This document shows positions 306 to 19,161 of a stretch of 19,367 nt of DNA, in pieces; position 1 is the first letter of the stretch, and each line of letters opens with the position of its first letter. Source of the stretch: Methanobacteriota archaeon (GTDB taxonomy: Archaea > Thermoplasmatota > Poseidoniia > Poseidoniales > Thalassarchaeaceae); assembly GCA_002713585.1 (NCBI GenBank), contig PATD01000042.1:1-19367 (forward strand). Reading direction: 5' to 3'. Both the position numbers and the translations under genes were made by a program. The notes below the pieces were generated by a model. The model worked only from the letters and a program-made list of their open reading frames with translations. It did not search any database and was not told where the DNA came from.

Positions 306-1969
306 GAATCCAACCAACGAACTCTCTTGTACACATCTATCTGTCCTTCAGTGAAGTAGTAACTTTGCTCTAATTCATAACTTCCATTGAGGACAAATGT
401 TAGCTCATCATAATTCCACATGTCCTTTTTGTGACCTCGGATATGTATCACTGAATCAGATTCATCATCGATAATTGGCATCAGTTGTCCGATGCCTAAA
501 TCGCCCCAACTCCCATGGGTGTCGATTTCAACATCACTACCCATTCTGCCTAGATAGAGATCCCAAAATCGGGAATATGGTTGACTTACAATGAATACAT
601 CATCCTGGTTTTCAGGCGTATTTTCATCTAACCATTCACTCATCCCTCTGAAATCACATCTCCCCCCTTGTTCATAGTATTCGAAATCATTCACCAACCA
701 ATGCAAGCTGTTTGACGCGAATATTGCCGTGAATGCTAATGCAATCGCCCATGACCATGTTGTCGTACTATCGAGTTTACTTCTTTGAGAATTGAATGCA
801 GAATCCATTAGGTCTATGGTTTTAGAAATCGAACTCCCAAACAAAATGTACCATGCAGGCATTGAGAACACGAAGTATCTCGACACCCAAAGTGGCCGAA
901 CAAGAACAGAGTAGATTACGACCATCAACATACTCCCGCCTCCTACAAACCAAACAAACCATTCAATTTCATTCTCTAATTCACGTTCAGTTTTCATTTT
1001 TCGATGCAAGTACAATATCAACGGAGAAAGAAGCACGAAGTACCACAATGATTCTGCAATGTCAGTTATTGTTCCCCGGTCGTCAAATGCAACAAAATAA
1101 TCGAATAGAGAAACCACGGGTCTTCTCGGTGTATCATTAATCCACATACTATGGTTTGTGCTTGAGGAGTCAAGAAACATCTTCTCCAGCATGAAAATTG
1201 CAACAGATGCCAGAGAGAAGCATATCATCAATCTTTGACCGTGGTTAGAGTTTAGGTAATCACGGATTTTATCGCTTAATCCGATTGGTTCCTGTGTACC
1301 GTGATTGGAAATCGTGGTCTTGATACGGATTATGAAATCACAAATCAGGCCTAGGACGATAGCTAATCCTGCGAGATAGTGAATTAAGTATGCTAGCGTC
1401 AATAATGTGACACTGGTTGCAATCTGTGGTTTTGTCAACCTCTCAGGTTTCCGAATTAAGTAGAACGAGATCCAAATGAATAGTGTCGTGAACATGTAGG
1501 GTCGAAATTCTTGACTGTAGAGTATCGAGAGATATGATACACTCATCATTCCGGCTGCAATGATTCCTGCCTTTTCGTCAGTGTGCTTGCGTGTAAATTC
1601 GCTTACAATGTAAATCAGAATTACTCCGGCAATTGCACTCACAGAGCGGAGCGCATAATCGGATTCAGTACCTACTATTTGGGCCCACCAATATAGTAGC
1701 CAAGTGCCCATGCCTACCATCGAAAGCCATCCTTCCATTGTGTCTCTCCAGTCTCCTCCATCGACTGCATCGAGTGTCGTTAATTCATCAAGCCAGAACG
1801 ATTCTACACCAAGTCCCCGGAATCGTAACATAGCCGAAATAATCAGGATCATGAACAATGAGATTCGATATGCTGCGCTCGCGTCTCTCGGGATGATGCC
1901 CCCAATCTGATTTCTCCCCATACCGATTTCACCACATCTAATCTGCGCATTCTTAGTGTTCTTTGACAT
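302..1969 (-). CDS. Polytopic membrane glycosyltransferase, GT-C fold (family 39/83, PMT/ArnT-like)
   Basis: 555-aa ORF with many hydrophobic segments. The N-terminal region LRFRGLGVESFWLDELTT resembles the first-loop acidic motif region of PMT/ArnT-like enzymes. A soluble C-terminal domain follows. The call rests on motif recognition only. Confidence 0.55.
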   Translation of the reverse strand: MSKNTKNAQIRCGEIGMGRNQIGGIIPRDASAAYRISLFMILIISAMLRFRGLGVESFWLDELTTLDAVDGGDWRDTMEGWLSMVGMGTWLLYWWAQIVGTESDYALRSVSAIAGVILIYIVSEFTRKHTDEKAGIIAAGMMSVSYLSILYSQEFRPYMFTTLFIWISFYLIRKPERLTKPQIATSVTLLTLAYLIHYLAGLAIVLGLICDFIIRIKTTISNHGTQEPIGLSDKIRDYLNSNHGQRLMICFSLASVAIFMLEKMFLDSSSTNHSMWINDTPRRPVVSLFDYFVAFDDRGTITDIAESLWYFVLLSPLILYLHRKMKTERELENEIEWFVWFVGGGSMLMVVIYSVLVRPLWVSRYFVFSMPAWYILFGSSISKTIDLMDSAFNSQRSKLDSTTTWSWAIALAFTAIFASNSLHWLVNDFEYYEQGGRCDFRGMSEWLDENTPENQDDVFIVSQPYSRFWDLYLGRMGSDVEIDTHGSWGDLGIGQLMPIIDDESDSVIHIRGHKKDMWNYDELTFVLNGSYELEQSYYFTEGQIDVYKRVRWLDS

Positions 1970-2003
1970 ATTGAAGAGTCATTTGAATATGAATTGTGCT
2001 GGT

Positions 2004-2021
2004 TTTTAGGCTCACCTAAAA
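2004..2021. promoter_or_regulatory. Candidate operator 1: perfect palindrome TTTTAGG-ctca-CCTAAAA
   Basis: 7-bp arms with a 4-bp spacer in the 110-bp divergent intergenic region between the genes at 302..1969(-) and 2080..3567(+). It shares the TTTAGG-N4-CCTAAA core with the site at 2059-2074. Confidence 0.35.
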
Positions 2022-2058
2022 TGCCCTAAATATCATATATGACCTAATTGTCGGACGT

Positions 2059-2074
2059 TTTAGGCGAGCCTAAA
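2059..2074. promoter_or_regulatory. Candidate operator 2: perfect palindrome TTTAGGC-ga-GCCTAAA
   Basis: The 16-bp palindrome ends 5 bp upstream of the ATG at 2080. It lies about 25 bp downstream of the AT-rich TATA-like stretch aaatatcatatat (2028-2040). Its centre is 54 bp from the centre of site 1. Confidence 0.35.
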
Positions 2075-2079
2075 CTCGT

Positions 2080-3567
2080 ATGGAATGGATACAAATGAAA
2101 ACGCGAACAATGCAAGGAATGACACTAGTTTTACTGATGTTGATGGCAGCTTTTGCCGGATGCGTTGCAGATGACACATCTGATGACACATCTACTAGCA
2201 CAGCAGACACCAGCACAAGTACTGCTGATAGCACCAACAGCACCGCCGATAGCAGTTCATCTGATAGCAGCTCATCTGATAGCAGTTCATCAGATAGCAG
2301 TTCATCTGATAGCAGCTCATCTGATGGTAGTTCTTCAGATGGCAGCAGCAGCGATTCCTCTTCCAGTGGAGGTGCAGCAGTTAGCACAATGGATTCCGAA
2401 GATGGAGGCTACACATACGCTTCCAATGTGGATAACCATCGATCTCTGATGGCTGACATGTGCGACATCAAGACCTACGCCAGCAATGCCCAGTGGACTG
2501 CAGCAAAGGACGTCTACCAGAATGGTAAGAATGCACCTAAGAGCGACGGTTCCTACCGCACCCTTGCAGGATTCGCTGCAGCAGCTGGAAAGCAACACAA
2601 CTACGACATGTTCTACGGAATGAACGGTTCAGTCGATGCTCACATCATGGCCGCTCTAGACGGAACTGGCGACTTTGCGAACACTTCCGACACAGTCCGA
2701 TACCAGGGTGTTGCTAAGCTAACTGCTAACATGGCAATGGTCGCATACACCATCCACGAGTTGAACACTGCAGTCAACAAGGCTGAGGCTGGCAACTGGG
2801 AAAACAATGACTCTGGAGCACCTCACAACTGGGACGAAGGATGGGCATTCTTCCATGGTCCTGATGAGAACGTTGGCTGTGGGCCAGTATCGACTCTCAA
2901 CAAGAGAGCCAACGACTTCGGCACCAAGACCAATACATCATTTGGAGATGTAGCCAACACCACTCATGCTATCACAGACGCAATGGTCGGTGGACTTGCT
3001 GCTCTACAGACAAACGACAGCACTGGATACAATGATGCTGGCGGCGTCGTCGTCAAGAACGTGATCATTGCATACTCTCAGGCAGTCCTGAAGTACACAT
3101 ACAAGATGGACTCCACCACTGATGCTGCTAAGTATCAGGCTGAAGGATACGCATTCTGGAAGACCATCGAAGCTTACGCAGCTGACTACACCGATGCATG
3201 CTACAACAACAAGACCCACACAATGGCTTACGTTGGAGATGCAGCCGATGCTACTGTTTGTGATAACTTTGCATGGTATACCGACTTCTCTATGGGTGGC
3301 GGACCTGCATTCACTGGATGTTACAACGTTGTAAGTCACACTGTGGCTACTGGCGTGAATGAATCCCAGTGTAACGATGGGTTCGGCGCAGTTGGTTCTA
3401 CTGGCATGCCGATGTACTACAACAACTACGGCGCTAGCCAGATGAATGAAGTTCTAGACCTAACGGACGCTACCCAGCTTGGCACATCGTATGATGTGTC
3501 TGCCTGGCTCGCTCCAGTATGGGCTCATTACGGCATCACATCTGATGACATCGGGTCTTACTCCTGA
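2080..3567 (+). CDS. Secreted lipoprotein of unknown function: S/T/D-rich linker plus a ~390-aa globular domain (possibly iron-related)
   Basis: Signal peptide with lipobox (LMAAFAGC), then a ~75-aa low-complexity T/S/D linker including (SSSSD)n. The globular part carries paired motifs NWDEGWAFFHG and AEGYAFWKTIEAY and six further Cys. The ATG at 2095 (MKTRT...) is a plausible alternative start. Confidence 0.75.
   Translation: MEWIQMKTRTMQGMTLVLLMLMAAFAGCVADDTSDDTSTSTADTSTSTADSTNSTADSSSSDSSSSDSSSSDSSSSDSSSSDGSSSDGSSSDSSSSGGAAVSTMDSEDGGYTYASNVDNHRSLMADMCDIKTYASNAQWTAAKDVYQNGKNAPKSDGSYRTLAGFAAAAGKQHNYDMFYGMNGSVDAHIMAALDGTGDFANTSDTVRYQGVAKLTANMAMVAYTIHELNTAVNKAEAGNWENNDSGAPHNWDEGWAFFHGPDENVGCGPVSTLNKRANDFGTKTNTSFGDVANTTHAITDAMVGGLAALQTNDSTGYNDAGGVVVKNVIIAYSQAVLKYTYKMDSTTDAAKYQAEGYAFWKTIEAYAADYTDACYNNKTHTMAYVGDAADATVCDNFAWYTDFSMGGGPAFTGCYNVVSHTVATGVNESQCNDGFGAVGSTGMPMYYNNYGASQMNEVLDLTDATQLGTSYDVSAWLAPVWAHYGITSDDIGSYS
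2248..2367 (+). repeat. In-frame 15-bp tandem repeat encoding (DSSSS)n
   Basis: gatagcagYtcatcW occurs 5 times nearly perfectly (2248-2322), followed by three degenerate units (gatggtagttcttca, gatggcagcagcagc, gattcctcttccagt). Confidence 0.9.
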
Positions 3568-3706
3568 TGATATGGAGTGAATTACAATCGCGAACACGCA
3601 CCGTACGCGGTCTACCGGCTGATCCGTTTGAGAGGCGAACCAACTCTCAATGTCCTCGGACGGGGACGGTGGACCGCGCACTGGTCTGGTGATTAGAGAA
3701 TAAGGA

Positions 3707-5812
3707 ATGATTGAGATGATAGCGAATAAAAAAAGAGCAATTTCCCTGGCAATTCTGATGGTTGTTGGGATGTCTGCCGGATGCCTTTCTGATGACACCG
3801 TTTCGTCTACAGATGACGGTTTGGCTGAGAATCCCGTGGATAGTTTGGTTATTGCATTTGAAGTGAAGGATACTTACACTAACATCGATGACAACCCCCA
3901 ACGTTTAGCTGACTATCTCGCTGAGAAGCTGGATGCTCCCGTAACTTTGTACCCGGTTGATTCCGAAGGTGCAGCCATGGAGGCTTTGCGCTTTGGTAAT
4001 GCGGATATCGGTTTCATGGATGGTGGGGCCGCATGGATTGGCTGGCAACAGTATGATCTTGGTGTGCTTGCTTCTGAGACCAAACCTGATGGGCGAACAT
4101 GGTATGGGGCTCGTGCAGTTGTAATGGCTGATTCAGATATTGCCGCTGCTGATCTTGATAATGATTCAGTCACCGATCCATTTGCTCTTTTCCAGGGTAA
4201 GACCCCGTGTCATACTGGTTGGTTGAAGTCAGCTGGAATGTTGCTTCCCATGGGCTACCTCATTGGAAATGGATATGCAAATGTAATCGGAGATCCGAAT
4301 GATGTTGATTCAATGAGAAATACAATTTTCAATTATTTCAATGAAAACGCTTCAATCCCTGAGTCAGGAGAATTGTACTATAGTTACAAGGGTGCACTTC
4401 GTTGTCTTTCCGAAGATCGTGGCGATATTGCATTTGTTGCAGATTCAACACTTGACTACTATTGTGTTGATCGTAAAGAGAGCAACTCTTGGTGCCTAGA
4501 TGAGGATTTGTATCACGAATTGCCTTTGTTTGGAAAGGCTCCTGGACACCCAGTCATGTATAATCCAGCATTGATGAGCACTGAGAAGGCAGATGCCATA
4601 CGTGATGCATTGGTTGAGATGGATGATGATGATGTAGGCGATGATATCCTAGACGACATCGTGAATTCACCACGTGGTATTGTGGATGTAGGTGGCACTG
4701 AAGCTCACCTTGGCACATATTCGGCAGCGATTCGGAATATTCCCGGAATCCAGGCATACTTCGGCGGTAACTATGGCGTTGTATCAAACTCAACACCTAC
4801 TAAGGATACAATCAGAATTGCATACGAGGTCAAGGATACCTACACAAATGTGGATTCTAACCCTCAGATTCTAGCAGATCGCCTTTCTGATAGATTGGGC
4901 GTTAATGTGGAACTTTACGATGTTAGTTCTGAAGGTGCTATTCTCGAGGCTCTTAGATTCGGTAATGCAGATATTGGATTCATGGATGGAGGAGCTGCAT
5001 GGGTAGGTTGGAAGGAATACGGTCTAGCTGCGTTAGCTGCTGATTTGAAGCCTGATGGCCGTTCATATTACGGTGCACAAGCGTATGTTCGAGCAGATAG
5101 TGACATAGCAGCAGCATATCTTGATGATGATCCATCTACTGATCCTTACGAACTATTCAGAGGAAAGACACCTTGCCACACTGGCTGGCTGAAATCAGCA
5201 GGTATGCTTCTACCGATGGGCTACTTGATTGGTAACGGATATGCCGAAGTTGTCGGCGACCCAGATGACGTCTCTTCTCTCAGAGATACCATCTATAATT
5301 TCTTCAACGAAAATGCATCTATTCCCGAATCTGGTGATTTGTATTACAGTTACGAAGGTGCGCTACGTTGCATGTCATCAGGTCGAGGAGATATCGCATT
5401 TATCGCTGACTCAACTTACGAATTCTATTGTGTTGATCGAAACCGAAATTGGTGCCTAGAGGATGGCGAATATTTGGCCCTCCCTATCTTTGGTAAGGCG
5501 CCGAGCCACCCTGTAATGTATAATCCTGAATTGCTTGATATGGCCACAAGGGCAGCACTGCTTGAAGAGCTGATGGCGATGAATTATGAATCTTGGATTG
5601 AGGAGGGAGATGGTTATTGTTACAACACTAATTCGCGTTCTATTGACGCTAATCTTACTCAGAGTTCCTGTGGTAGTTCGATACTTTCTGAGGTGTTGAA
5701 TACTGGAGGTTTGATTGCAGTGAATACTCAAGAGCACATGGGGAGTTATTCTGATTCAATTTCTTATGTTCCAGGTATTTCTTCATATTTCGAAGATAGA
5801 TACGATATCTGA
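3707..5812 (+). CDS. Bilobal transferrin-family / PhnD-superfamily substrate-binding lipoprotein (putative Fe3+ binding)
   Basis: Signal peptide plus lipobox (GMSAGC). Two tandem ~320-aa copies each carry transferrin-lobe motifs: NADIGFMDGG, (W/Y)YGA(R/Q)A, GKTPCHTGWLKSAG, YYSY(K/E)GALRC, GDIAF(V/I)ADST and AP(G/S)HPVMYNP. The TAAGGA just upstream suggests the ATG at 3716 may be the true start. Confidence 0.85.
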   Translation: MIEMIANKKRAISLAILMVVGMSAGCLSDDTVSSTDDGLAENPVDSLVIAFEVKDTYTNIDDNPQRLADYLAEKLDAPVTLYPVDSEGAAMEALRFGNADIGFMDGGAAWIGWQQYDLGVLASETKPDGRTWYGARAVVMADSDIAAADLDNDSVTDPFALFQGKTPCHTGWLKSAGMLLPMGYLIGNGYANVIGDPNDVDSMRNTIFNYFNENASIPESGELYYSYKGALRCLSEDRGDIAFVADSTLDYYCVDRKESNSWCLDEDLYHELPLFGKAPGHPVMYNPALMSTEKADAIRDALVEMDDDDVGDDILDDIVNSPRGIVDVGGTEAHLGTYSAAIRNIPGIQAYFGGNYGVVSNSTPTKDTIRIAYEVKDTYTNVDSNPQILADRLSDRLGVNVELYDVSSEGAILEALRFGNADIGFMDGGAAWVGWKEYGLAALAADLKPDGRSYYGAQAYVRADSDIAAAYLDDDPSTDPYELFRGKTPCHTGWLKSAGMLLPMGYLIGNGYAEVVGDPDDVSSLRDTIYNFFNENASIPESGDLYYSYEGALRCMSSGRGDIAFIADSTYEFYCVDRNRNWCLEDGEYLALPIFGKAPSHPVMYNPELLDMATRAALLEELMAMNYESWIEEGDGYCYNTNSRSIDANLTQSSCGSSILSEVLNTGGLIAVNTQEHMGSYSDSISYVPGISSYFEDRYDI
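3839..5797 (+). repeat. Internal tandem duplication of a whole binding-protein lobe (aa ~45-352 and ~367-697)
   Basis: The two halves align colinearly and are roughly two-thirds identical by eye. Long identical runs include KTPCHTGWLKSAGMLLPMGYLIGNGYA and FNENASIPESG. Confidence 0.85.
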
Positions 5813-5838
5813 AATCAGGATGGGGGGTCAGACCAAAT

Positions 5839-8199
5839 ATGGTCAGCACTAGAGTTGTAGTCTTCTGTATCTTCGTCCTGGTATGTTCATCCATTAACGT
5901 CCATTCTGAATCAAATACATCGGAGAGTTACACTGTATCTGGCTACGTCCTGCTCCCTGATGGATCTCCTGCGAATGCAACTTCAGTCAAACTTGTTCCA
6001 ATGGATTCCGTTTGGACGGATCAAACAGGTTTCTATTCCATTTCCGGTGTATCTAATGGTGAGCACATAATTCGTGCTTATTTCATGAATGACGGGCACA
6101 CAGTCGCTTATCGTTCGGTAGTTGTAGACGATGATGTTGAATTAAATTGGACCGTAGGTAAGAATTGGGTCATTCCAAGATTGAGTGATAATTTAACAGT
6201 CAATGACTACAACATCACATCAGTCTCGATAAATGAGAACGGTGATATTACTGATTTAGGTGAGAGTGTTGCGTACCTGGGTCCATATGCTATTGGAGAT
6301 TATTACACATTGATAGGCACATTTGATGATGCTGAGGGAACAACTCAGCAGTTCCATTTCCAAGTATCTGAAGGTTCTACCACGTATCCTCGTCCGAATG
6401 AATTCATTTTCCAATACGGCATGAATAACCTGTATGGTTTTCTTACAGATTCAACAGGTGCACCGATGAATGAGGTGCTGGTTAGTATCGAGAATCAGAC
6501 AGTATCCACAAATACTGATGGATTCTATCTTCTTCGTAATCTTGTGATTGGAGATACATACAATGTAAGTTTCAAGCAAGGTAATGTTGAGGTGTTCCAA
6601 ACGGTGAGCCAACAAATCTATTCCGGACCTGGATGGTTAAATGTGTCATCAATAGTGGATGTTGAATTACCCGAATCACCGTATTTCCACCTCTCACTAG
6701 ATACTTCTTCCAATGAATCGTATGAAATTAGGTGGGATGGAGGGAACTTTACAGAATATTTCTCTGTGTATGAAGGTGAAATTTCTGATGATAACACCCC
6801 CATTTACACAGGTACGCAAAGATCGATTGACTGGGTTCCCAGCGAATCTGGAACATTTGTGTTCAACATTATTGCAGTGAATTCGAATGGATCCACAGAA
6901 TCTCCTCAATCCTTCGTTCTAATTGTACTTCCTGATTCTCAATCAGACGATTTGTGGTCAGAAGGTATGAGTTGGGATTATGCCTTGACACATACACCTT
7001 TGAGCTCTTACGGAGTTCACAACAGAACAGTTACTGCGATATCAACTGAAACAGTTCAGGATGCATTTGGCAATACCAGAGAATCTTACTTGGTGAGGGT
7101 TACAGATGGCATTGATGAGGAAGGCGAACAGAGATATCGTTGGGTTGACAAGGATAACTTGCTGAATATCAAGACATATTGGGCAGACGCCCCTAGTTCA
7201 TCGTCCTACTATCAAGAAGGCACACTAGGTTGGGAATTTGTGGATTCCGAAGGTGCAGAGGCATCTTTACTATCTGGGCCAGAGCCCACTGAACTTCATT
7301 TCAATCGAACCAATATCATTGGTGTTCCAGGTCATCCAAATGGTTACGATGATACCATGAATAATGTGTCTATATCCTATGACGTAGAGGTATCAACACC
7401 TGCTGGTTCGTTCATGACCACTTACATCTCGATAACAGATGCGTCTGATGGAATTAGGTCATGGGAATTGTGGTACAACCATACTGTCAGGAATTGGGTG
7501 AAAATCATCGACAGGCTCCCTGGCTCACATTCCGACTCAGTCGAATATGTGTTGACTGCATTCGAGGTGCCTTTGTCTCCCCAATTCTTAGTCGAGGACT
7601 CATCTATTGATACGAAAAATTTCACAATCCGTTGGTCTGATTTCCAAGGGGCTGAATCGTACGAATTGAGCCATAATGGGGTTGTGACTTATGCGGGTTC
7701 TTCCAATTTTTATGAGGCGATGGATCTGGAGGATGGCGAGCATCATTTTGAGATTGTCGCGGTTATGAATTCCGACTATTCAGTTATTGGAAATAGTCTG
7801 AACCTTTCAGTTCTATTCGTTCAACAGCCACCGATTCTTGAAATCGAGAATCAGAATCTAACTATTGGTTCATCCAAGTTAGTTACTTGGTCAGAAATTC
7901 ATGATGCTCAAGCCTATGTTCTAGGAGTAGTGCTTCCGGATGGATCGTATTATGAGGCTTACAATGGGAGTGCAAATAGCTTTGATTTGGAGATTGAAAA
8001 TATTGGGCAACACAGGATTCGAGTTTTGGTGTTAATGGAAGATGGCCCAAATTCTGGATGGTCTGAATCTGTATTCATACTAGCTGAGGATAGTAATTTA
8101 GTAGCAGAGGGTACCAGCGCTTCTTTTTCTTCAGTGGTTTTTGGATTCGTTCTTTTACTAATTCTGCTGATAGCAATTTCAAAACCAAGGAGGGCTTGA
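5839..8199 (+). CDS. Large secreted, C-terminally membrane-anchored surface glycoprotein (CarboxypepD_reg-like and fn3/Ig-like beta-sandwich repeats)
   Basis: N-terminal signal peptide. Two segments look like carboxypeptidase-regulatory folds (YTVSGYVLLPDGSPANATSVKL...GFYSISGV and LYGFLTDSTGAPMNEVLVSI...DGFYLLRNL). At least three segments of the type (Y/F)xIRW...YxV/L look fn3-like. I count 19 N-X-S/T sequons. The C-terminus has a hydrophobic helix plus a KPRRA tail. Confidence 0.7.
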   Translation: MVSTRVVVFCIFVLVCSSINVHSESNTSESYTVSGYVLLPDGSPANATSVKLVPMDSVWTDQTGFYSISGVSNGEHIIRAYFMNDGHTVAYRSVVVDDDVELNWTVGKNWVIPRLSDNLTVNDYNITSVSINENGDITDLGESVAYLGPYAIGDYYTLIGTFDDAEGTTQQFHFQVSEGSTTYPRPNEFIFQYGMNNLYGFLTDSTGAPMNEVLVSIENQTVSTNTDGFYLLRNLVIGDTYNVSFKQGNVEVFQTVSQQIYSGPGWLNVSSIVDVELPESPYFHLSLDTSSNESYEIRWDGGNFTEYFSVYEGEISDDNTPIYTGTQRSIDWVPSESGTFVFNIIAVNSNGSTESPQSFVLIVLPDSQSDDLWSEGMSWDYALTHTPLSSYGVHNRTVTAISTETVQDAFGNTRESYLVRVTDGIDEEGEQRYRWVDKDNLLNIKTYWADAPSSSSYYQEGTLGWEFVDSEGAEASLLSGPEPTELHFNRTNIIGVPGHPNGYDDTMNNVSISYDVEVSTPAGSFMTTYISITDASDGIRSWELWYNHTVRNWVKIIDRLPGSHSDSVEYVLTAFEVPLSPQFLVEDSSIDTKNFTIRWSDFQGAESYELSHNGVVTYAGSSNFYEAMDLEDGEHHFEIVAVMNSDYSVIGNSLNLSVLFVQQPPILEIENQNLTIGSSKLVTWSEIHDAQAYVLGVVLPDGSYYEAYNGSANSFDLEIENIGQHRIRVLVLMEDGPNSGWSESVFILAEDSNLVAEGTSASFSSVVFGFVLLLILLIAISKPRRA

Positions 8200-8204
8200 T
8201 TTAG

Positions 8205-9305
8205 ATGGATAAGGGAAAACTTGCCTTAATCCAAGTATCCATTCTCTTGATTGGTTTCTTTGGATGGTACATTCTATCTGATCAAGACATACAAGAATCA
8301 GAGCAGCCTTACTCGATTACTGTAACTGATTCAAATGGAGTGGTACACCAGTTCGAAGAATCTCCTTCGCGTGTTGCTATTTCCAATACCTATATTGCGA
8401 GTGCAATGAGAATGTTGAATGTCTCTTCGTCCGTAGTTGTAGGAGTTTCTGGTGACTTCGATGATTCGATATTATGGCCTGAATATAATGAGACAAAGAT
8501 AGTTCAGAATTCGGCCCATTCTGAGATTGATTTTGAGGCATTGTACGATGCTCGACCCGATGTATACATCGTTTTCGCTACCAATGGTATGGTCGATACT
8601 AGTGCCATACGAAACAAACTTGATGAGGTAGGTATCAGGGTTATTGCATTGGATTTTTACAAATATGATTACCTCCGAACCGAGTTTCAGGTAATTGCTG
8701 AATTGTTCAATAAGCAAGAAGAAATGAATGATCTTTTAGCAGATTTTGATTCGATAGAATTACTAATTGAAGGAAGGATTTCTTCTCTTGAATCCGACAA
8801 CCGTCCAACTGTTGTTATGGAACATCATGCTTCCCTTACTCGTGATCCAGTAGTTTTGACCGGAACATCTCAATGGACTGATATGATAGAAAAAGCAGGA
8901 GGGATAAATTTCTTTGCTGAACTTCCGGGACATACCACTCATGTTGACATGGAGGCAATCCTTGATGCGGATCCTGATGTAATCCTATTTGACGGAATAA
9001 CATTTGATATTGGATTCAATCGATTTGATACAGACGGAATTTCTTGTGATCAACATATAGAATTCGTGTCCGAACGTCCTGGTTTTGATGGAGTTCAAGC
9101 TGTAATAGATGATAGAATGCTAATTTTTTCTGGTGAATTTGCAGGTCCTATGATGATTCATGGTCTTCCAACACTTGCCAAGCACTTACATCCTGAAAAA
9201 TTCCTTGACATTGATACAGATTCGTATCTAGACGAATATTTCTCCGAATATCATGGTGTTGAGAGAATAGGAAAGTTCGTTTGCCAATCAGGTAATGGAG
9301 ATTAA
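8205..9305 (+). CDS. ABC substrate-binding protein, FecB/BtuF/HmuT class (iron-siderophore / heme / cobalamin type), N-terminal TM anchor
   Basis: N-terminal hydrophobic anchor, then the family-typical ITVTDSNGVVHQFEESPSRVAISNTYIASAMRMLN opening and the PDVYIVF and DPDVILF motifs. An AGGAGG sequence lies upstream. The gene overlaps the permease gene by 11 nt. Confidence 0.8.
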   Translation: MDKGKLALIQVSILLIGFFGWYILSDQDIQESEQPYSITVTDSNGVVHQFEESPSRVAISNTYIASAMRMLNVSSSVVVGVSGDFDDSILWPEYNETKIVQNSAHSEIDFEALYDARPDVYIVFATNGMVDTSAIRNKLDEVGIRVIALDFYKYDYLRTEFQVIAELFNKQEEMNDLLADFDSIELLIEGRISSLESDNRPTVVMEHHASLTRDPVVLTGTSQWTDMIEKAGGINFFAELPGHTTHVDMEAILDADPDVILFDGITFDIGFNRFDTDGISCDQHIEFVSERPGFDGVQAVIDDRMLIFSGEFAGPMMIHGLPTLAKHLHPEKFLDIDTDSYLDEYFSEYHGVERIGKFVCQSGNGD

Positions 9306-10404
9306 TCCAATGGAGTCGATCACTGAACGTCATATCCAGAATGGATATGTACAGATTCTCATAATGGCAGTAGTTGCAAGTTGTACCATAATACTGGGTC
9401 TATTTGCAATGGGTATCGGTTCTTCTGAACAGTTAGATCAACTATCGACACTGAAAATAATTCTAGGTATTTCAGAGCCTGACTCATTACAGTCCGATAT
9501 AATCTGGCATCTCAGATTTCCTAGAATACTAATGGCAATTACATGTGGAGTTGCTCTTGCCACTGCTGGAGCACTTATGCAGGGATGTTTGGGAAACCCC
9601 CTGGTTTCCCCACTTACTCTTGGAGTTGCATCCGGTGCATCACTAGGTGCCGCCCTTGCAATTGTATTGGGTTTGCAAGTAATCGATTTCCTTGAACCTT
9701 TTTTGTCAAACCTCCCCGGTCCGCTTTCAAATTTGGATTTTGAATCGATAGGAATCGTGGCCAATGCATTTTTCTTTTCGTTAATTGTGGTTGTAATTAT
9801 CATACAATTGGGGAAAATGCGTTCTATATCTCCTGAATCATATATTCTTGTAGGCATTGCAATCACATTCATCTGTGGAGCAATAGTATCAACAATTCAG
9901 TATTTTGCATCTGATGCTGAGATTTCTCAACTGACGCATTGGTCCTTTGGTTCACTGTCAAGGCCAGATCTTGGTCAGACAATGTGGATTGCTGCACTGA
10001 TTATTTGTCTAATGCCCTATGCAATCATATTTGCTTGGGATTTGAATTCGATGGCTTTAGGGGGTGACGATTTTGCAATTTCAACAGGTGTAGACCCACA
10101 AGCTACAAGGGTTACAATATTGGTATTGTCAGCTGGCATGACATCTATTGTCATAGCATTCACTGGTTTGATTGGTTTTGTCGGTCTTGCTGCACCTCAC
10201 ATGACTCGTCTAATTATAGGAAATGATTATCGTAAATTGTTACCATGTTCCGCGGTTTCTGGGGCATTTTTGGTATTAATAGCAGACACTATTGGTCGTA
10301 CTATTGTTGCCCCAATCATCATTCCAGTCGGAGTGATGTTATCCGTAATTGGGGGGCCATTTTTCATGTATCTCCTCCTTGCAAATAAGGGGGTGTCACA
10401 TTGA
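9295..10404 (+). CDS. ABC permease, FecCD/BtuC/HmuU family
   Basis: Polytopic protein with the hallmark RFPRILMAITCGVALATAGALMQGCLGNPLVSPLTLGVASGASLG. Its stop overlaps the next gene's TTG start. Confidence 0.9.
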   Translation: MEINPMESITERHIQNGYVQILIMAVVASCTIILGLFAMGIGSSEQLDQLSTLKIILGISEPDSLQSDIIWHLRFPRILMAITCGVALATAGALMQGCLGNPLVSPLTLGVASGASLGAALAIVLGLQVIDFLEPFLSNLPGPLSNLDFESIGIVANAFFFSLIVVVIIIQLGKMRSISPESYILVGIAITFICGAIVSTIQYFASDAEISQLTHWSFGSLSRPDLGQTMWIAALIICLMPYAIIFAWDLNSMALGGDDFAISTGVDPQATRVTILVLSAGMTSIVIAFTGLIGFVGLAAPHMTRLIIGNDYRKLLPCSAVSGAFLVLIADTIGRTIVAPIIIPVGVMLSVIGGPFFMYLLLANKGVSH

Positions 10405-11207
10405 ATTCGATACTCGAGGCCAAGAATCTGAGTTTCAGTTGGGGCAATAAACAAGTTTTTTCTGGCGTTGGTTTTGATATTCAGCCAAACCAGATAGTTG
10501 CTATTGTCGGGGTTAATGGGGCAGGTAAATCTACACTATTGAAATGCCTAAATCGTATACTTGTTCCTTCTACAGGTAGTATATCCATCAATTCTGAAGA
10601 AGTTAGTACAATGCCTATTCTTGAATTAGCGAAACAAGTATCCTATGTTCCACAGTCAGTATCTACAAGTTTCCCATTAGATGTATATGACGTTGTTATG
10701 CTTGGAAGGAGGCCATACATTTCTTGGAGAATTAGTGATGAAGACCGGGAGTTTGTTTCTAACACTATTTCTTTATTCGATTTAGAAGATTTTGCTTTCA
10801 GAAGATTTGATCAGTTATCTGGAGGAGAGAGGCAACGTGTGATTATTGCTAAGGCGGTTGCCCAAAACCCTTCATTATTTCTTTTCGATGAACCTACCAG
10901 TGATCTTGATCTTAAGAATCAGATTATTGTGATGAAATCAATTCGTAAACTCGTGGACAATAAGGACAACAATTGTTCGGCTTTGATTGCGATTCACGAT
11001 CTAAATACTGCTGCAAGGTTTGCAGATTCTATTTTGATGTTACATGAGGGTGAAATGAAGGCGTTTGGCTCCCCAGAGATAGTTTTCACTGAAGAAAATA
11101 TTTCAGAAGTTTTTGGTGTGACCAGTGACTTGATATCATCGAATGATGGTGCACCAATGAGGATACATGTTCTCGATATCCCCAATGACGAGTCGGCGGG
11201 AAATTGA
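10401..11207 (+). CDS. ABC ATPase, FepC/HmuV/BtuD type
   Basis: Walker A GVNGAGKST, signature LSGGERQRV and Walker B LFLFDEPTSDLD. The TTG start overlaps the permease stop (tTGA). Confidence 0.9.
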   Translation: MNSILEAKNLSFSWGNKQVFSGVGFDIQPNQIVAIVGVNGAGKSTLLKCLNRILVPSTGSISINSEEVSTMPILELAKQVSYVPQSVSTSFPLDVYDVVMLGRRPYISWRISDEDREFVSNTISLFDLEDFAFRRFDQLSGGERQRVIIAKAVAQNPSLFLFDEPTSDLDLKNQIIVMKSIRKLVDNKDNNCSALIAIHDLNTAARFADSILMLHEGEMKAFGSPEIVFTEENISEVFGVTSDLISSNDGAPMRIHVLDIPNDESAGN

Positions 11208-11226
11208 AACTTAAAGTGGTGAAAAA

Positions 11227-11679
11227 ATGACTGAAAAAGAACTAATGATTATTTTTGGAACAGAGACTGGAAATGCAGAAATGGTTGCTGAAGATGCTCA
11301 ACGAATGGCGCCAGATTATGGTTTGAATGCTACTATCCATGACATGGATGATTTGAGTGTGGATGATCTTTCCGGAGCCACACGTCTCCTAGTAACTTGC
11401 AGCACCTGGGGCGATGGTGATCAGCCAATGAATGCTGAAGATTTGTATGAATCTATGGAGGATGCAGATGGTGGAACTATGGATGGCATAAATTTTGCAG
11501 TCCTAGCATTAGGGGATACCGCCTACGAACTGTTCTGTGAATCAGGAAAGCAATGGGATGCAGTTCTTGAGGAAAAGGGCGGGAACCGAGTTGCGGAAAG
11601 AATTGACCTTGACACAGATTTTGAAGATTTCACAGAAGAGTGGCTTCAGTCTGCATTGGAAGCATTCCAGAATGTGTGA
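11227..11679 (+). CDS. Flavodoxin (short FMN-binding, MioC/CysJ-FMN-domain-like)
   Basis: IFGTETGNAEMVAED, LVTCSTWGDGDQP and FAVLALGDTAYELFCESGK are classic flavodoxin FMN-loop motifs. A GGTGA sequence lies upstream. Confidence 0.85.
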   Translation: MTEKELMIIFGTETGNAEMVAEDAQRMAPDYGLNATIHDMDDLSVDDLSGATRLLVTCSTWGDGDQPMNAEDLYESMEDADGGTMDGINFAVLALGDTAYELFCESGKQWDAVLEEKGGNRVAERIDLDTDFEDFTEEWLQSALEAFQNV

Positions 11680-11705
11680 TAGTCCTCATTTCTAAGGTGA
11701 ATTGA

Positions 11706-12527
11706 ATGACTGAAAAATCAGCTGACATACCTCGTCATGCTCCACCTAAGGGCGCGAGTACAAGACAACAGGAGTTGTTGTATGATCCAAATGTGGCTAC
11801 CTCATCACACGCTGAACAAGCTAGGACTCTTATTGAGAGGGTAGGTACTGCAACATTATGCACGATTTCACACAGCCATGAGGGTCATCCTTACGGTTCA
11901 TTTGTTACATTCGCAATGGATGGCGAGCATCCTATCTTTTTGATAAGTCGACTAGCAGAACACACAAAGAATCTGCTTCAGAATTCTAAATCCTCACTTT
12001 TGGTTGCAGAAGGAGGGGATGGCAATCCACTTGCTTTGGGCCGAGTGACATTAGTTGGAATTTGTGAACAAGTTTCGGACGATGAACGGCCCCGCTTGAA
12101 GGAAATCTTTGTTCAACGACACCCTGATTCAAAATTCTATGCTGATTTCGGCGATTTCCTATTTTTCCGTCTTGAGGTAGATTCTGTGCGATATATCGGA
12201 GGTTTTGGTCGTATGTCGTGGTTCGGAGATGTGGATTGGGCTGAGGCTGAACCAGATCCGTTGTATTCATCTGCTGATGGGATAATCGAACACATGAATG
12301 ATGATCATCAGGATGCTATGCTATTGATTTGCCATACTATGTCGAAGGCAACTGATGCTACAGAACCTGTGATGACGGGAGTGGACCGGTATGGGTTTGA
12401 GATGTCGGTTATGACAGGGGATGGAAGGCGTCCGATTCGAGTTGCGTTTGAGAATACATGCGATAATCCAGATGATGTTAGAAGTGCCATGGTCAATTTG
12501 GTAAAAATCGCTCGTTCAAAGGTATGA
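11706..12527 (+). CDS. HugZ/HutZ-like heme-utilisation protein (PNPOx-like split barrel + C-terminal DUF2470)
   Basis: The N-terminal ~170 aa match the pyridoxamine-5'-phosphate-oxidase-like pattern (GTATLCTIS...GHPYGSFVTFAMD...PIFLISRLAEHTKNL...SSLLV...LGRVTLVG...DFLFFRLEVDSVRYIGGFGRMSWF). The C-terminal IIEHMNDDHQDAMLLICH is the DUF2470 signature. An AAGGTGA sequence lies upstream. Confidence 0.75.
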   Translation: MTEKSADIPRHAPPKGASTRQQELLYDPNVATSSHAEQARTLIERVGTATLCTISHSHEGHPYGSFVTFAMDGEHPIFLISRLAEHTKNLLQNSKSSLLVAEGGDGNPLALGRVTLVGICEQVSDDERPRLKEIFVQRHPDSKFYADFGDFLFFRLEVDSVRYIGGFGRMSWFGDVDWAEAEPDPLYSSADGIIEHMNDDHQDAMLLICHTMSKATDATEPVMTGVDRYGFEMSVMTGDGRRPIRVAFENTCDNPDDVRSAMVNLVKIARSKV

Positions 12528-12625
12528 CTGGTCGATGGTGATGACTAAATCAGTTGTCCGTTTCGTAGGGTTTAGGCTAGTTCTACAAATACTCTAGTTA
12601 GGCATGATTTCAGGTTCGTGAGTTT

Positions 12626-13345
12626 ATGTCTAAATCAGTGGTACATATCGAGAATGCTTCGATAGGTTTCTCACCAGATGAACCCCTCATCAAAAATCTC
12701 AATCTGGAAATCAATCAGGGCGAGATTGTCGCCATTGCTGGCCCATCAGGTATTGGGAAGACAACACTTCTCCGTACGATTGCAGGTCTCGTTCCAATGC
12801 TTGAAGGAGAAATGACTCTCTTTGGTCGAAATAGCAAAGCATCTCGTGGTGAACTTGGATACATACCACAAAGGCTTGGCCTCATCCGGCACGCATCTGT
12901 CTATCACAATGTGTTAATGGGCGCCTTGACAAGTACAGCTGGCGTATGGTTCCCGTTTTCATTTGAGGCCAGACGTCGTACATTAGAATCGATTGATGCA
13001 ATGGGTATTAGTGAGAAAAAAAGAACTCCAATTCGACTTTTATCTGGAGGTCAACAGAGACGCGTTGCAACCGCAAGAACACTAGCCCAACAACCGTCAA
13101 TCATTCTTGCTGATGAATTCCTTGGAGAATTAGATGAAGAAACAATGGAAAGCGTCCTATCAAAGGTCACCAATTATGTTCGTACAAATAATGCGACGTT
13201 AATCGTAGTGGAACACGATATATCGCGTGCTAAGAGGATGGCGGACCACCTTCTTATTCTTGATGATGGCCAATTAAATCCATTTGTCGATCAACCAATT
13301 TCTATGCAGATTTCCATGCGTTTAGATAAGGAGTTGAACGTATGA
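12626..13345 (+). CDS. phnC: ABC ATPase, PhnC-like
   Basis: Walker A GPSGIGKTT, signature LSGGQQRRVATAR and Walker B IILADEF. A PhnC-style insert follows the Q-loop (LGYIPQRLGLIRHASVYHNVLMGAL...). The gene is translationally coupled (ATGA) to a PhnE-type permease. Confidence 0.75.
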   Translation: MSKSVVHIENASIGFSPDEPLIKNLNLEINQGEIVAIAGPSGIGKTTLLRTIAGLVPMLEGEMTLFGRNSKASRGELGYIPQRLGLIRHASVYHNVLMGALTSTAGVWFPFSFEARRRTLESIDAMGISEKKRTPIRLLSGGQQRRVATARTLAQQPSIILADEFLGELDEETMESVLSKVTNYVRTNNATLIVVEHDISRAKRMADHLLILDDGQLNPFVDQPISMQISMRLDKELNV

Positions 13346-14277
13346 GCGACTCTGGTTCTAAAGTTGATTTTACTACCCTCGCCTCTAGATTGTGGTACTC
13401 ATCTCGTTGGTTTCTTCTGTTTATCGGCTTGTTAGTTGTAGCTTTTCGAGTAACTAACAGCATGGATCCCAACTGGGGGCGATTAGCTAATACGAATAAC
13501 AATCTGGTTACCTTCTTCCAAGAATCTCTGTGGCCTCCTGACTGGAGTGTTATTGAAGCACAAGCATACCCTCCTTGTTTGGCGGCTCCAGGCCTATCTT
13601 TCACCTGCTCAACAGCATGGTTGGGTATGATTGAGACTCTCAAAATTGCATTCGTTGCAACTATTCTAGGTATGACGATATCGTTCCCATTGTCATTGCT
13701 CGCTTCCCGTAATCTTAGCCCTAATTGGGTTAGTTACCCTGCTCGTTTCTTACTCGCAGGGTCTCGAAGTTTGCCAAGTATCATTTGGGCTCTTTTCTTC
13801 GTTATCGTGATAGGTTTCGGGCCATTATCCGGAATATTAGCTATGACTGTCTATACGATTGGGTATCTCGGTAAACTACAGTACGAAACCATCGAGGGTA
13901 TCGATCGTGGACCCTTGGAAGCATCCAAGGCGATGGGCCATGGATGGTTTGAGCGTTCTTTTGGTGTAATTCTCCCTGAATCCGCAAATGGCCTAATCTC
14001 GCAGGTGATTTTCATGTTTGAATATAATTTCAGACATGGGACTGTGATTGGAATTGTGGGTGCAGGTGGGATCGGATATTACATCAATCTCTATCTCAAA
14101 TTCCTACAATATGACAAGGTAATCGCCTACCTGATCATTATCTTCGTTGTAGTATTAATTCTAGATGTGATATCCATTTATGCCCGGTCTTTGTTTACCG
14201 AGGATGGCGATGTACGACGTCAATCTTGGTGGTCAATTTTACTCCCTCCCTCTATGTTGAGGAATGAAGATGACTGA
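13342..14277 (+). CDS. phnE: ABC permease, PhnE-like
   Basis: Matches the PhnE pattern: IETLKIAFVATILGMTISFPLSLLASRNL, RSLPSIIWALFFVIVIGFGPLSGILAMTVYTIGYLGKL, EASKAMG, FEYNFRHGTVIGIVGAGGIGY. Confidence 0.8.
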   Translation: MSDSGSKVDFTTLASRLWYSSRWFLLFIGLLVVAFRVTNSMDPNWGRLANTNNNLVTFFQESLWPPDWSVIEAQAYPPCLAAPGLSFTCSTAWLGMIETLKIAFVATILGMTISFPLSLLASRNLSPNWVSYPARFLLAGSRSLPSIIWALFFVIVIGFGPLSGILAMTVYTIGYLGKLQYETIEGIDRGPLEASKAMGHGWFERSFGVILPESANGLISQVIFMFEYNFRHGTVIGIVGAGGIGYYINLYLKFLQYDKVIAYLIIIFVVVLILDVISIYARSLFTEDGDVRRQSWWSILLPPSMLRNEDD

Positions 14278-17493: not shown

Positions 17494-19161
17494 ATGGAAA
17501 TAAAATTGTCCGCAGTCCCGCTTGTCTTACTGATGTTGATTCTGCTATCAGCCGGGTTTGTAATTGATGGAACTGAGGGGCCACAAGGACCTCCTGGAGC
17601 AGATGGTGCCAACGGAATAGATGGTGTAGACGGTGTAGATGGCACCCCCGGAGCCGACGGGACGAATGGAATGGATGGGCAGGATGGAGCCGACGGGACG
17701 AATGGAACGGAGGGACAGGATGGTGCTGATGGTGCCGATGGTGCGGATGGTGCAGATGGTGCGGATGGTGCGGATGGTGCGGATGGTGCTGATGGTGCCG
17801 ATGGTGCCGATGGTGCCGATGGAAGCGCGTCCCCCAACACCATGCTCACAAGTGTCTCAACACCAACCCTCGAAGATTGCTCTGCTGGTGGCAGAATTAT
17901 CGAGCAGGGACTCGACAATGGCGATGGTGGAGGAACTGCCCAGAACGGTATTCTAGAGGCTGGAGAAGTGGACTATACTACGACTTACTGCAGCCACTTC
18001 GTTGTCAAGCAGGTAGCCGACATCAACAGCGGTAGCAACGACGCAGATCCGAATGGCTTCATAGTCATGGGAACACGACTGTACTTTGAGGCGAACGGAG
18101 GCAGCGGCGACGACCTGTGGGCGTACGATACTACAAACGGCTCGGCTTGGCAGGTTGCGGACATCAACCCAACCCCATTAGCATTCTCGGCTGTGAACGA
18201 CATGGTAGTCGTGGGAACACGACTGTACTTCGAGGCGACCGACGGCGTGACCGGCTTCGAAGTGTGGGCGCACGAGACTACAAACGACTCGACTTGGAGG
18301 GTTACAGACATCAACAGCGGGGGCAGCTCGTCCCCGGATTCTATGGTAGTCATGGGAACACGACTGTACTTTGAGGCTTACGACGGAAACGTATACGACC
18401 AACTGTGGGCGCACGAGACTACAAACGACTCGACTTGGCAAGTTACAGACATAAACACCGATGGCTGTAGCGATGCGAATCATATCGTAGTCATGGGAAC
18501 ACGACTGTATTTTGAGGCGTACGGCGACACCACCGGCGGCGAACTGTGGGCGCACGAGACTACCAACGACTCGACTTGGCAGGTAGCCGACATCAACAGC
18601 GGTAGCAGCAGTGGGGGGGCTAATGATATCATAGTCATGGGAACACGACTGTACTTTGAGGCGGACGACGATATCAGCGGCGGCGAACTGTGGGCGCACG
18701 AGACAACAAACGGCTCGACTTGGTTGGTTGCCGACATTTACAGTGGTGTCGACGGCAGTGAGGCGAGAGATTTCGTGGCCATGGGCACACGACTGTACTT
18801 TGAGGCGAACGACGACATCCACGGCTTCGAACTGTGGGCGCACGAGACTACAAACGACTCGACTTGGCAGGTAGCCGACATCCGGAGCGGCGGCGGAAGT
18901 GGGTATGCGGGCGATATCGTAGTCATGGGAACACGACTGTACTTCGAGGCGTATGACGGCATCACCGGCTCCGAACTGTGGGTACACGAAACGACCAATG
19001 GATCTACTTGGCAGGTAGCCGACATCAAAAGCGGTAGCAGCAGTGGTATGGCGAGCGGTATGGTAGTCATGGGAACACGACTGTACTTTGAGGCGGACGA
19101 CGGCAGCTTTGGCGACGAACTGTGGATGATGGAAATCGAGCATACGATTACTTACAGTTGA
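17494..19161 (+). CDS. Secreted/anchored collagen-like protein with an eight-repeat ELWxxDGT-type (propeller-like) C-terminal domain
   Basis: N-terminal hydrophobic signal/anchor. Gly occurs at every third residue from aa 26 to 110. A Cys-bracketed linker follows (EDCSAGGRIIEQGLDNGDGGGTAQNGILEAGEVDYTTTYCS). Then come eight ~48-aa repeats of the form GTRLYFEA-x6-8-ELWAHETTNxSTWQVADInSG. A GAAGGTA sequence lies upstream. Confidence 0.85.
   Translation: MEIKLSAVPLVLLMLILLSAGFVIDGTEGPQGPPGADGANGIDGVDGVDGTPGADGTNGMDGQDGADGTNGTEGQDGADGADGADGADGADGADGADGADGADGADGADGSASPNTMLTSVSTPTLEDCSAGGRIIEQGLDNGDGGGTAQNGILEAGEVDYTTTYCSHFVVKQVADINSGSNDADPNGFIVMGTRLYFEANGGSGDDLWAYDTTNGSAWQVADINPTPLAFSAVNDMVVVGTRLYFEATDGVTGFEVWAHETTNDSTWRVTDINSGGSSSPDSMVVMGTRLYFEAYDGNVYDQLWAHETTNDSTWQVTDINTDGCSDANHIVVMGTRLYFEAYGDTTGGELWAHETTNDSTWQVADINSGSSSGGANDIIVMGTRLYFEADDDISGGELWAHETTNGSTWLVADIYSGVDGSEARDFVAMGTRLYFEANDDIHGFELWAHETTNDSTWQVADIRSGGGSGYAGDIVVMGTRLYFEAYDGITGSELWVHETTNGSTWQVADIKSGSSSGMASGMVVMGTRLYFEADDGSFGDELWMMEIEHTITYS
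17569..17829 (+). repeat. Collagen-like G-X-Y tract (about 28 triplets)
   Basis: GTEGPQGPPGADGANGIDGVDGVDGTPGADGTNGMDGQDGADGTNGTEGQDG(ADG)n has uninterrupted Gly periodicity. Confidence 0.9.
17722..17820 (+). repeat. 11 tandem 9-bp units ggtgcNgat (Gly-Ala-Asp)
   Basis: The 11 units are ggtgctgat ggtgccgat ggtgcggat ggtgcagat ggtgcggat ggtgcggat ggtgcggat ggtgctgat ggtgccgat ggtgccgat ggtgccgat. They differ only at the Ala wobble position. Confidence 0.95.
18001..19158 (+). repeat. Eight tandem ~141-144-bp coding repeats with long identical nucleotide cores
   Basis: The string atgggaacacgactgtacttYgaggcg recurs with GTR codons at aa 193, 241, 288, 335, 383, 431, 479 and 527. ctgtgggcgcacgagacNacaaacgactcgacttgg also recurs. 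Confidence 0.9.

Follow-up and report, generated by a model that had tools for sequence, protein, structure and literature searches.

Where HugZ, ChuZ or HutZ operate, an ATP-binding cassette (ABC) importer of the HutBCD/ChuBCD type is followed by a split-barrel, haem-degrading protein, under iron regulation. The Isd and HtaA-HmuTUV systems of Gram-positive bacteria comprise a surface-anchored receptor, an anchored binder, a FecCD-type importer, a cytoplasmic haem-degrading enzyme (IsdG/IsdI) and a separate reductant (IruO). Genes for HOZ-like proteins, in which the split barrel precedes the DRI/DUF2470 domain, have been found next to FecCD, BPD-type and transferrin-like genes, and these clusters were interpreted as possibly serving haem uptake and utilisation (Grosjean et al., 2024, J Biol Chem; PMC11602992). 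We report here on a block of this kind in a marine planktonic archaeon. The window, i.e., the whole stretch of DNA that was analysed (19,367 nucleotides), is the entire contig C43 of genome G000 (1.72 Mb, 77% complete), and it encodes in a row a substrate-binding protein, a FecCD-type permease, an ABC ATPase, a flavodoxin and a HOZ-type protein. The nearest homologues of the latter are named Candidatus Thalassarchaeaceae or Euryarchaeota, corresponding to Marine Group II (MGII), order Poseidoniales. The importer and HOZ genes belong, together with the gene of a 786-aa surface protein upstream, to a conserved accessory unit, which we tentatively read, with somewhat less than even confidence, as a putative iron-regulated system for haem uptake with HOZ-mediated iron release, in which haem as the cargo, its turnover and the electron path would all be as proposed below.

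The conservation of the block was established on 40 fetched HOZ contexts, on which the window proteins were mapped by tblastn, and in a survey of genomes that are all incomplete metagenome-assembled genomes (MAGs; 60-98%). A HOZ gene is present in 70 of 401 Poseidoniales genomes, either as a close orthologue (~45) or as a member of a ~30%-identical lineage (~25). The order surface protein, binding protein, FecCD permease, ATPase, optional flavodoxin and HOZ is observed, provided that the contig extends far enough, in ~30 of the 40 loci, and it is kept in both families of Poseidoniales and with both HOZ lineages (~30% mutual identity), which occupy the same slot. The gene of the 786-aa protein lies directly 5' of the binding-protein gene in 31/40 loci. 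FecCD permeases are encoded by 52 of 301 genomes (~17%), nearly always in single copy, and 47 of these 52 genomes are HOZ-positive, with coordinates beside HOZ; in G000 itself, FecCD and this kind of binding protein are each encoded once. Because of this kept synteny and of the coupling between FecCD and HOZ, we consider that the unit consists of the surface protein, the importer and HOZ, and we call it module B. It is the only type-II (FecCD) ABC importer found in Poseidoniales, and in the window it lies within an iron module of wider distribution (transferrin-like/PhnCE/flavodoxin), called module A. A previous interpretation of this DNA, made from its letters and open reading frames (ORFs) and hereafter called the sequence-only reading, had delimited a block of five genes from the binding protein to HOZ. 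This block stands, but its limits were drawn too narrowly, as the surface protein is an invariant part of the unit.

Outside the archaea, few of the bacterial HOZ homologues (Vicinamibacterales, Myxococcota, Actinomycetota; 35-56% identity) have FecCD or ATPase genes nearby. In a Myxococcales MAG, a gene of the Haem_oxygenas_2/TENA-PQQC family (haem-oxygenase-like) lies right after the HOZ homologue (L059:8789-9466). Two loci with bacterial labels, L051 (DBHI01000069, 'Anaerolineales') and L056 (NZEQ01000021, 'Verrucomicrobiales'), display the MGII-type arrangement, including GpsA, with 52-63% identity, and these labels are probably binning errors.

The last protein of the module had been assigned by the sequence-only reading to the haem-degrading HugZ/HutZ/ChuZ family, with the barrel first and DUF2470 last, which is the reverse of HugZ. 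Its place among the haem-binding split-barrel proteins and the reversed order are both borne out. Pfam detects CREG_beta-barrel (PF13883, 2.8e-23) and PNPOx_N (PF01243, 2.7e-13) over residues 33-173, and DUF2470 (PF10615, 8.9e-21) over residues 191-265. On the HugZ model TIGR04109 the protein scores 69.4 bits, for a cut-off of 240, and the DRI part alone aligns; as residues 193-272 match positions 2-78 of this model, the domain order is reversed relative to HugZ. The barrel-then-DRI order, termed HOZ-like or 'C-extension', is the commonest prokaryotic form (PMC11602992; PMC13715372). The best solved relative is MSMEG_6519 of Mycobacterium smegmatis (PDB 5BNC; 1.3e-43 over residues 30-270), a haem-binding/degrading protein of the same domain order, followed by AtHOZ1 (6M09; 1.5e-33), PA4388 (2ARZ; 6.7e-31) and PtHOZ1 (9BL1; 3.3e-30). 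The likeness to MSMEG_6519, which is bacterial, is one of sequence and domain order. By its barrel, its DRI domain placed after the barrel, its full-length similarity and its conserved His, the protein classifies with the HOZ-like clade in the sense of IPR037119, and by its score it falls outside HugZ sensu stricto (TIGR04109).

An alignment of 25 HOZ sequences, including the 30%-identical lineage, reveals invariant residues in the barrel (H86 within an AEHTKN motif, R113, Y145, R162-Y163 and W172) and an invariant DRI pair, H196-M-N-x-D-H201. His86, equivalent to His61, and the DRI pair match by their spacing the metal-site or predicted haem-site residues of PtHOZ1B (roles from PMC11602992). 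The residue equivalent to His135 of AtHOZ1 is a Val here and an Ala in MSMEG_6519. HugZ differs by its N-terminal DRI domain and by an axial His near its C-terminus, and HutZ by having no DRI domain. In the same 25-sequence alignment no invariant His is found at residues 160-190, and the axial His of HugZ/HutZ is absent, in agreement with its reported absence from all C-extension types (PMC13715372).

Haem is ranked first among the possible cargoes because the terminal gene of the module always encodes a protein of a family in which every characterised member is a haem binder. Haem uptake also keeps this place because the importer and the protein of the haem-binding family are inseparable and because bacterial analogues exist. 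According to this reading, the run of genes would be derepressed under iron starvation, the surface protein and the anchored binding protein would capture an iron-bearing ligand outside the cell, and the type-II ABC importer would carry it inside. There, the HOZ protein would bind the tetrapyrrole and help to free or redistribute its iron, the flavodoxin acting as an electron carrier of the iron regulon, i.e., as a substitute for ferredoxin that spares iron and as a general reductant. The module would then share with the HugZ/ChuZ/HutZ systems an importer, a split-barrel haem-degrading protein and iron regulation, whereas its binding protein appears to stand outside the ShuT/PhuT/HutB group. 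With the Isd and HtaA-HmuTUV systems the analogy is functional only, their degrading enzymes being of a different family.

A membrane helix is present at the N-terminus of the binding protein, whose relatives in a large protein collection are almost all from MGII. The fold nearest to its model (predicted local distance difference test, pLDDT, 88.9) is that of YiuA of Yersinia (Foldseek E ~1e-24; template modelling score, TM, 0.71-0.76), and a VIA-align comparison with YiuA gives a Z score of 29.6-31.4 over 307-322 aligned residues. Behind YiuA come uncharacterised binders, MolA at Z 27.6 and CeuE of Helicobacter, which binds Ni-His, at Z ~25. Lower scores are obtained with the haem binders (PhuT 23.5, IsdE 21.5, ShuT and HutB 21.1) and with classical siderophore binders (Z ~20-21), and BtuF is a weak match (Foldseek rank 48, TM 0.57). 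With the profile of the family, YiuA is found at 2.6e-25 and IsdE partially at 5.5e-8, and this search yields no ShuT, PhuT, HmuT or BtuF match; on the IsdE model the protein scores 29.5 bits, for a cut-off of 298. By sequence and fold, the binding protein appears to fall outside the known haem-binder group. The sequence-only reading had considered that a clear grouping with cobalamin or hydroxamate-siderophore binders would refute haem; with YiuA nearest, the placement shifts in that direction without clearly reaching it, and the likeness to BtuF is weak.

The closest binding protein by both profile and fold is thus that of YiuABC of Yersinia (YiuA, PDB 6B2X/6B2Y, 9HRJ/9HRP/9HT5/9IF3), and a literature search found no paper on the newer YiuA structures. 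The differences are nevertheless substantial, as identity is ~20% and YiuA works with an outer-membrane receptor, whereas the host archaeon has no outer membrane and the MGII module has an anchored, Ig-like protein instead. In the sequence alignment, the loops forming the cleft of the MGII proteins hardly vary and abound in His, Tyr, Met and acidic residues. The invariant residues are Tyr63, Tyr152 and Tyr154, His105, His207, His208, His243 and His246, and Met129, Met316 and Met317, and the invariant cleft motifs SAHSEIDFE, DFYKYD, MEHHASLTRDP and GHTTHV are not in YiuA.

These results bring forward the main alternative, a close rival which we hold to be possible but rather unlikely. Module B could import a small Fe(III) chelate, with a YiuA-like cargo such as catecholate fragments or the weak organic iron complexes of seawater. 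HOZ would then not be fed by the importer, but would sense, degrade or buffer endogenous haem in order to reallocate iron when it is short. YiuA, the best match by sequence and by fold, has been solved with Fe, Fe-NTA and Fe-DHB-Arg-Ser, and these entries are among the structures closest to the model. The island context is also one of Fe(III) uptake (FEA1, transferrin-like substrate-binding protein, PhnCE), and two members of the HOZ family, GluTR-binding protein and Dri1, bind haem non-enzymatically (PMC11602992). On the other hand, as Tyr152 and His208 stand where the aligned YiuA sequence has Arg, the pocket chemistry is probably unlike that of YiuA. Moreover, the near 1:1, co-directional coupling of HOZ with the importer, often without a flavodoxin in between, exceeds what a homeostasis gene would need, and monoderm siderophore importers normally do without a large surface receptor.

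The importer could alternatively carry cobalamin or another metal complex (Ni, Co, Mo), HOZ being unrelated, but this is very improbable and the least credible of the readings considered. The permease and the ATPase score on BtuC/corrinoid models as well as on haem models; for the ATPase, the NCBIfam scores are 221 bits (haem), 218 (corrinoid), 210 (F420-0) and 199 (FecE), all under the curated cut-offs. The sequence-only reading was therefore right in stating that the importer class alone cannot name the cargo. MolA and Ni-His CeuE among the structural neighbours and the His-rich cleft would also suit a metal complex. The weakness of BtuF as a match, both in fold and in sequence, argues against such a cargo, as do the presence of the module in only ~17% of genomes, its putative iron-box control, its iron-island context and its tight coupling to HOZ.

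The distribution of module B is linked to that of haem synthesis. HemB (5-aminolaevulinate dehydratase) is present in 99/401 Poseidoniales genomes and HemH (ferrochelatase) in 131/401, in agreement with the gaps in the haem pathway reported in MG-IIb (Kim et al., bioRxiv 10.1101/2021.01.11.426183). HemH is found in 62/70 HOZ-positive versus 69/331 HOZ-negative genomes, and HemB in 51/70 versus 48/331, these co-occurrence statistics being inflated by genome kinship and physical linkage. The module is present in 65/134 genomes with at least one of the two markers and in 5/267 with neither, and is thus nearly confined to the third of the order that makes haem. The two distributions often coincide exactly within genera (the same 3/24 genomes in g6, the same 1/18 in g7 and the same 2/11 in g13). 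Linkage is also physical, HemH lying within ~21 kb of HOZ on the same contig in ten sampled genomes. In G191 (L042, G191:C24:9400-22570; 139-9818, minus strand), a hem operon, convergent with HOZ, starts 87 nt after it; it is complete, protoporphyrin-dependent and of bacterial/eukaryotic type (HemA-HemCD-HemB-HemL-HemE-HemF-HemY-HemH). Haem import as a general means to cover auxotrophy was considered and rejected on these counts, as the module goes with haem synthesis.

Haem synthesis is not complete in all carriers, as the module is present in 48/96 genomes with the complete pathway and in 14/35 with a lone ferrochelatase (HemH without HemB, 35/401 genomes). G000 and three module-bearing congeners have HemH and COX1, HemB and HemE being missing, and a tblastn search of G000 found none of seven other hem genes. 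Its HemH is a lone gene paired with that of a DUF454 membrane protein (C17:77160-78176; L046:9137-10195), and such a HemH-DUF454 pair is part of the iron island in G375 (L025:2237-3662). It could thus be envisaged that the module serves tetrapyrrole salvage, the importer taking up protoporphyrin-like porphyrins or haem, HOZ being a cytoplasmic carrier and the lone ferrochelatase making haem with iron from the transferrin system. The G000 group, the position of the G375 pair and the occurrence of the module in lone-ferrochelatase genomes rather than in marker-less ones all favour it. We nevertheless find it highly unlikely, as the module is even commoner with the complete pathway, as an iron-starvation switch suits the gain of iron more than that of porphyrin, and as porphyrin binding is here an argument from context. 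A version restricted to the lone-ferrochelatase lineages, in which the central beta domain of the surface protein and the YiuA-like binder would capture porphyrin or haem released by phytoplankton, HOZ would carry it, and ferrochelatase with transferrin-imported iron would complete or re-make haem, is only a little less so and stays quite unlikely.

Returning to haem uptake, four observations weigh against it. By sequence and by model, the binding protein appears to group with YiuA-type iron-chelate and small-ligand binders (MolA, Ni-His CeuE), and not with ShuT, PhuT, HmuT, IsdE or BtuF. Its invariant cleft, as deduced from the alignment, is acidic and His-rich, whereas haem propionates would predict a basic one. 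The near-absence of the module from genomes without haem-synthesis markers, together with its tie to ferrochelatase, is the opposite of what a supply for auxotrophs predicts. Finally, C-extension HOZ proteins lack the axial His of HugZ/HutZ (PMC13715372), and some members of the family are non-enzymatic. Import of an Fe(III) chelate accounts better than haem uptake for the YiuA likeness and for the link with ferrochelatase or the full hem operon, often ~0.1-21 kb away. The proposal of a haem cargo made in the sequence-only reading keeps the support of the HOZ neighbour and is weakened by the YiuA-nearest binder (2.6e-25; Z 31 versus 21-23.5 for haem binders) and by the ferrochelatase tie.

The flavodoxin had been proposed to be a dedicated partner of the HOZ protein. 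Its matches to flavodoxin models (PF00258, 4.8e-31; flavin mononucleotide (FMN) part of TIGR01931, 9e-35) and its motifs (GTETGNAE, of the loop for the FMN phosphate, STWGDGDQP and LGDTAYELFC) assign it to the short-chain flavodoxins of the FMN-domain type of CysJ and cytochrome P450 reductase (CPR). The FMN domain of CPR is the electron donor of eukaryotic haem oxygenase. In its strict form, this proposal makes the flavodoxin the physiological reductant of HOZ, both forming a self-contained pair for the release of haem iron. The survey of co-occurrence speaks for it in part, as the flavodoxin gene is found between ATPase and HOZ, directly 5' of the latter, in ~25/40 loci, with gaps of -8 to 26 nt, and has stayed adjacent to HOZ in L027 and L029 despite rearrangement. 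Besides, no physiological donor is reported for the family, ascorbate being the only donor used in PMC13715372.

The pairing is, however, not exclusive. The flavodoxin gene lies beside FEA1, and not beside HOZ, in L016, L018 and L024, and none is found within ~10 kb of HOZ in 12/40 loci. Of ten places fetched around orthologues (51-87% identity) in HOZ-less genomes, seven are inside a transferrin-like (Tf)/PhnC/PhnE operon, and such operons were seen in at least seven of the genomes examined. In the congener G327 (87% identity), the locus reads box-box, Tf > flavodoxin > PhnC > PhnE < GpsA > aminotransferase, i.e., that of the window minus the importer block and HOZ. Other HOZ-less orders are PhnC > PhnE > flavodoxin, FEA1 > flavodoxin > Tf > PhnC > PhnE and FEA1 > flavodoxin > PhnC > PhnE. 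The flavodoxin gene even has an iron box of its own, 83 nt upstream in L139 and at a greater distance in L131, and a tblastn search (E <= 1e-6) did not detect a flavodoxin homologue near 60-odd bacterial HOZ homologues. As its orthologues sit in iron operons with or without HOZ, we conclude that the flavodoxin is a member of the iron regulon (module A). Its adjacency to HOZ is not evidence of a dedicated pair, and exclusive service to HOZ appears unlikely; it is a plausible, undedicated donor for HOZ in vivo. In HOZ-less genomes (L134), the Tf-like binder and PhnC/PhnE form one operon with the flavodoxin, and in the window the importer block splits them.

The iron regulation invoked above is suggested by two palindromes, TTAGGCTCACCTAA and TTAGGCGAGCCTAA, both located within 110 nt ahead of FEA1. 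Their consensus, TTAGG-N4-CCTAA, resembles DtxR/IdeR iron boxes. It occurs only three times in the 1.72-Mb genome, and 50 times in the 560 kb of the 40 orthologous loci, mostly 14-200 nt 5' of FEA1, surface-protein, PhnC or transferrin-like genes. The genome also encodes two DtxR-type C-terminal domains (PF02742). As the palindromes are rare in the genome and conserved in position, and as regulator domains are present, the run is putatively a DtxR/IdeR-type iron regulon, repression by iron being the presumed direction of control. The third genomic copy, a perfect TTAGGCTAGCCTAA at G000 C31:3744-3757 (L127), is directly 5' of a TATA-like stretch and ~40 nt 5' of an ORF (3785-4087) for a 4Fe-4S ferredoxin of 100 aa. 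A box before a ferredoxin gene and before a flavodoxin-bearing run fits the classic iron-sparing switch, if the control operates in the presumed direction, and suggests that a ferredoxin/flavodoxin iron switch exists in MGII archaea. This is reminiscent of the isiB-type response of marine phototrophs and bacteria to iron stress, in that the MGII flavodoxin gene lies beside iron-uptake genes behind an iron-box-like site and a ferredoxin gene follows a site of the same type. The MGII host is in contrast a heterotrophic archaeon, the regulator would be of DtxR type, and the switch is predicted from sequence.

The 786-aa protein begins with a signal peptide, is rich in N-x-S/T sequons and ends in a membrane anchor. 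In its model (pLDDT 80.7), two transthyretin-like and three Fn3-like domains surround a central beta domain (~366-580), which is the best-conserved part (58-70% identity across MGII versus 40-45% overall). Fold searches returned only generic Ig, Fn3 and transthyretin-like domains, with no match covering the central domain, and neither Pfam nor fold searches detected a NEAT or HtaA domain. An Atlas search with residues 365-585 gives 0.84 to unnamed clusters, and the DUF3108-like clusters found at 0.80-0.82 are to be taken as a lead only. All homologues are MGII proteins of ~770-830 aa, without names. The central beta domain is a candidate for ligand capture.

From 2080 to 14277 all genes are on the + strand, in the order FEA1, PhnD/transferrin-like binder, 786-aa protein, the five genes of the sequence-only reading, and PhnC- and PhnE-like genes (Table 1). 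The coordinates, overlaps and gaps of these five genes had been given exactly, as compared with the ORF list; their family assignments are confirmed by Pfam and NCBIfam, and they are indeed part of an iron-related uptake block. The start codons chosen are supported by orthologues in the 40 related loci, which align from residue 1-11 of each protein.

Table 1. Features of the iron-related run and of its upstream region in the window.
Feature	Position	Strand	Evidence and remarks
Operator-like palindrome TTAGGCTCACCTAA, DtxR/IdeR-like box, first of two 5' of the first gene of the run	2006..2019	.	
Second palindrome TTAGGCGAGCCTAA, 7 nt ahead of the FEA1 start codon	2060..2073	.	
FEA1-related lipoprotein, iron module A (context)	2080..3567	+	NCBIfam NF038033 2e-101, Pfam Fea1 7e-25
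Two-lobed PhnD-like/transferrin-like binding protein, module A (context)	3707..5812	+	Pfam Phosphonate-bd 5e-40, Transferrin 2e-27
786-aa surface glycoprotein, invariant first gene of module B	5839..8199	+	
Membrane-anchored class-III substrate-binding protein, YiuA-like fold	8205..9305	+	Peripla_BP_2 5e-26
FecCD-type permease	9295..10404	+	FecCD 3e-81; 11-nt overlap with binding protein
ABC ATPase, haem/corrinoid/FecE group	10401..11207	+	ABC_tran 9e-31; TTG start; 4-nt overlap with permease
Short-chain flavodoxin, CysJ/CPR FMN-domain type	11227..11679	+	Flavodoxin_1 5e-31; 19-nt gap after ATPase
HOZ-type (C-extension) split-barrel + DRI/DUF2470 protein	11706..12527	+	26-nt gap after flavodoxin
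PhnC-like ATPase and PhnE-like permease, membrane part of module A (context)	12626..14277	+	

The G+C content of the surface-protein/importer block (6001-11000) is 0.39-0.43, as compared to 0.49 upstream (2001-4000) and 0.43-0.46 downstream. This low G+C and the absence of the importer block from the same locus in G327 fit a separable block. Further downstream, the window encodes a collagen-repeat protein with a beta-propeller-like C-terminal part (17494-19161; Pfam Collagen 4e-15), unrelated to the importer block.

That HOZ-like genes lie beside FecCD, BPD and transferrin-like genes has already been published (Grosjean et al., 2024; PMC11602992). In comparison with those neighbourhoods, in whose description neither archaea nor flavodoxin are mentioned in the text, the MGII module is archaeal, includes the 786-aa surface protein as an invariant member, follows a DtxR-like box and has a distribution that goes with that of ferrochelatase. 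As far as the literature searched shows, the new elements are the archaeal setting with a surface protein of its own, the evidence that the flavodoxin is not specific to HOZ, the placement of the binder near YiuA, the presence of the operator ahead of a ferredoxin gene as well and the co-occurrence with ferrochelatase.

All these results modify how such loci are to be read. A flavodoxin next to HugZ-like genes in MGII is not to be taken for a dedicated reductase partner, a surface protein still uncharacterised belongs to the functional unit, and the binding protein appears to differ in type from the known haem binders. Should haem be the cargo, module B would provide archaea with haem uptake through a new receptor; if it is not, the presence of HOZ in iron operons needs a reading other than 'haem utilisation'. 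Salvage, if true, would mean that an archaeal group ranking among the most abundant in the surface ocean has a haem economy of a new kind, together with a new type of archaeal surface receptor. As module B is the sole FecCD importer found in the order, is carried by about one sixth of the genomes and is tied to patchy haem synthesis, it marks an ecotype-level difference in the iron and haem economy of these archaea.

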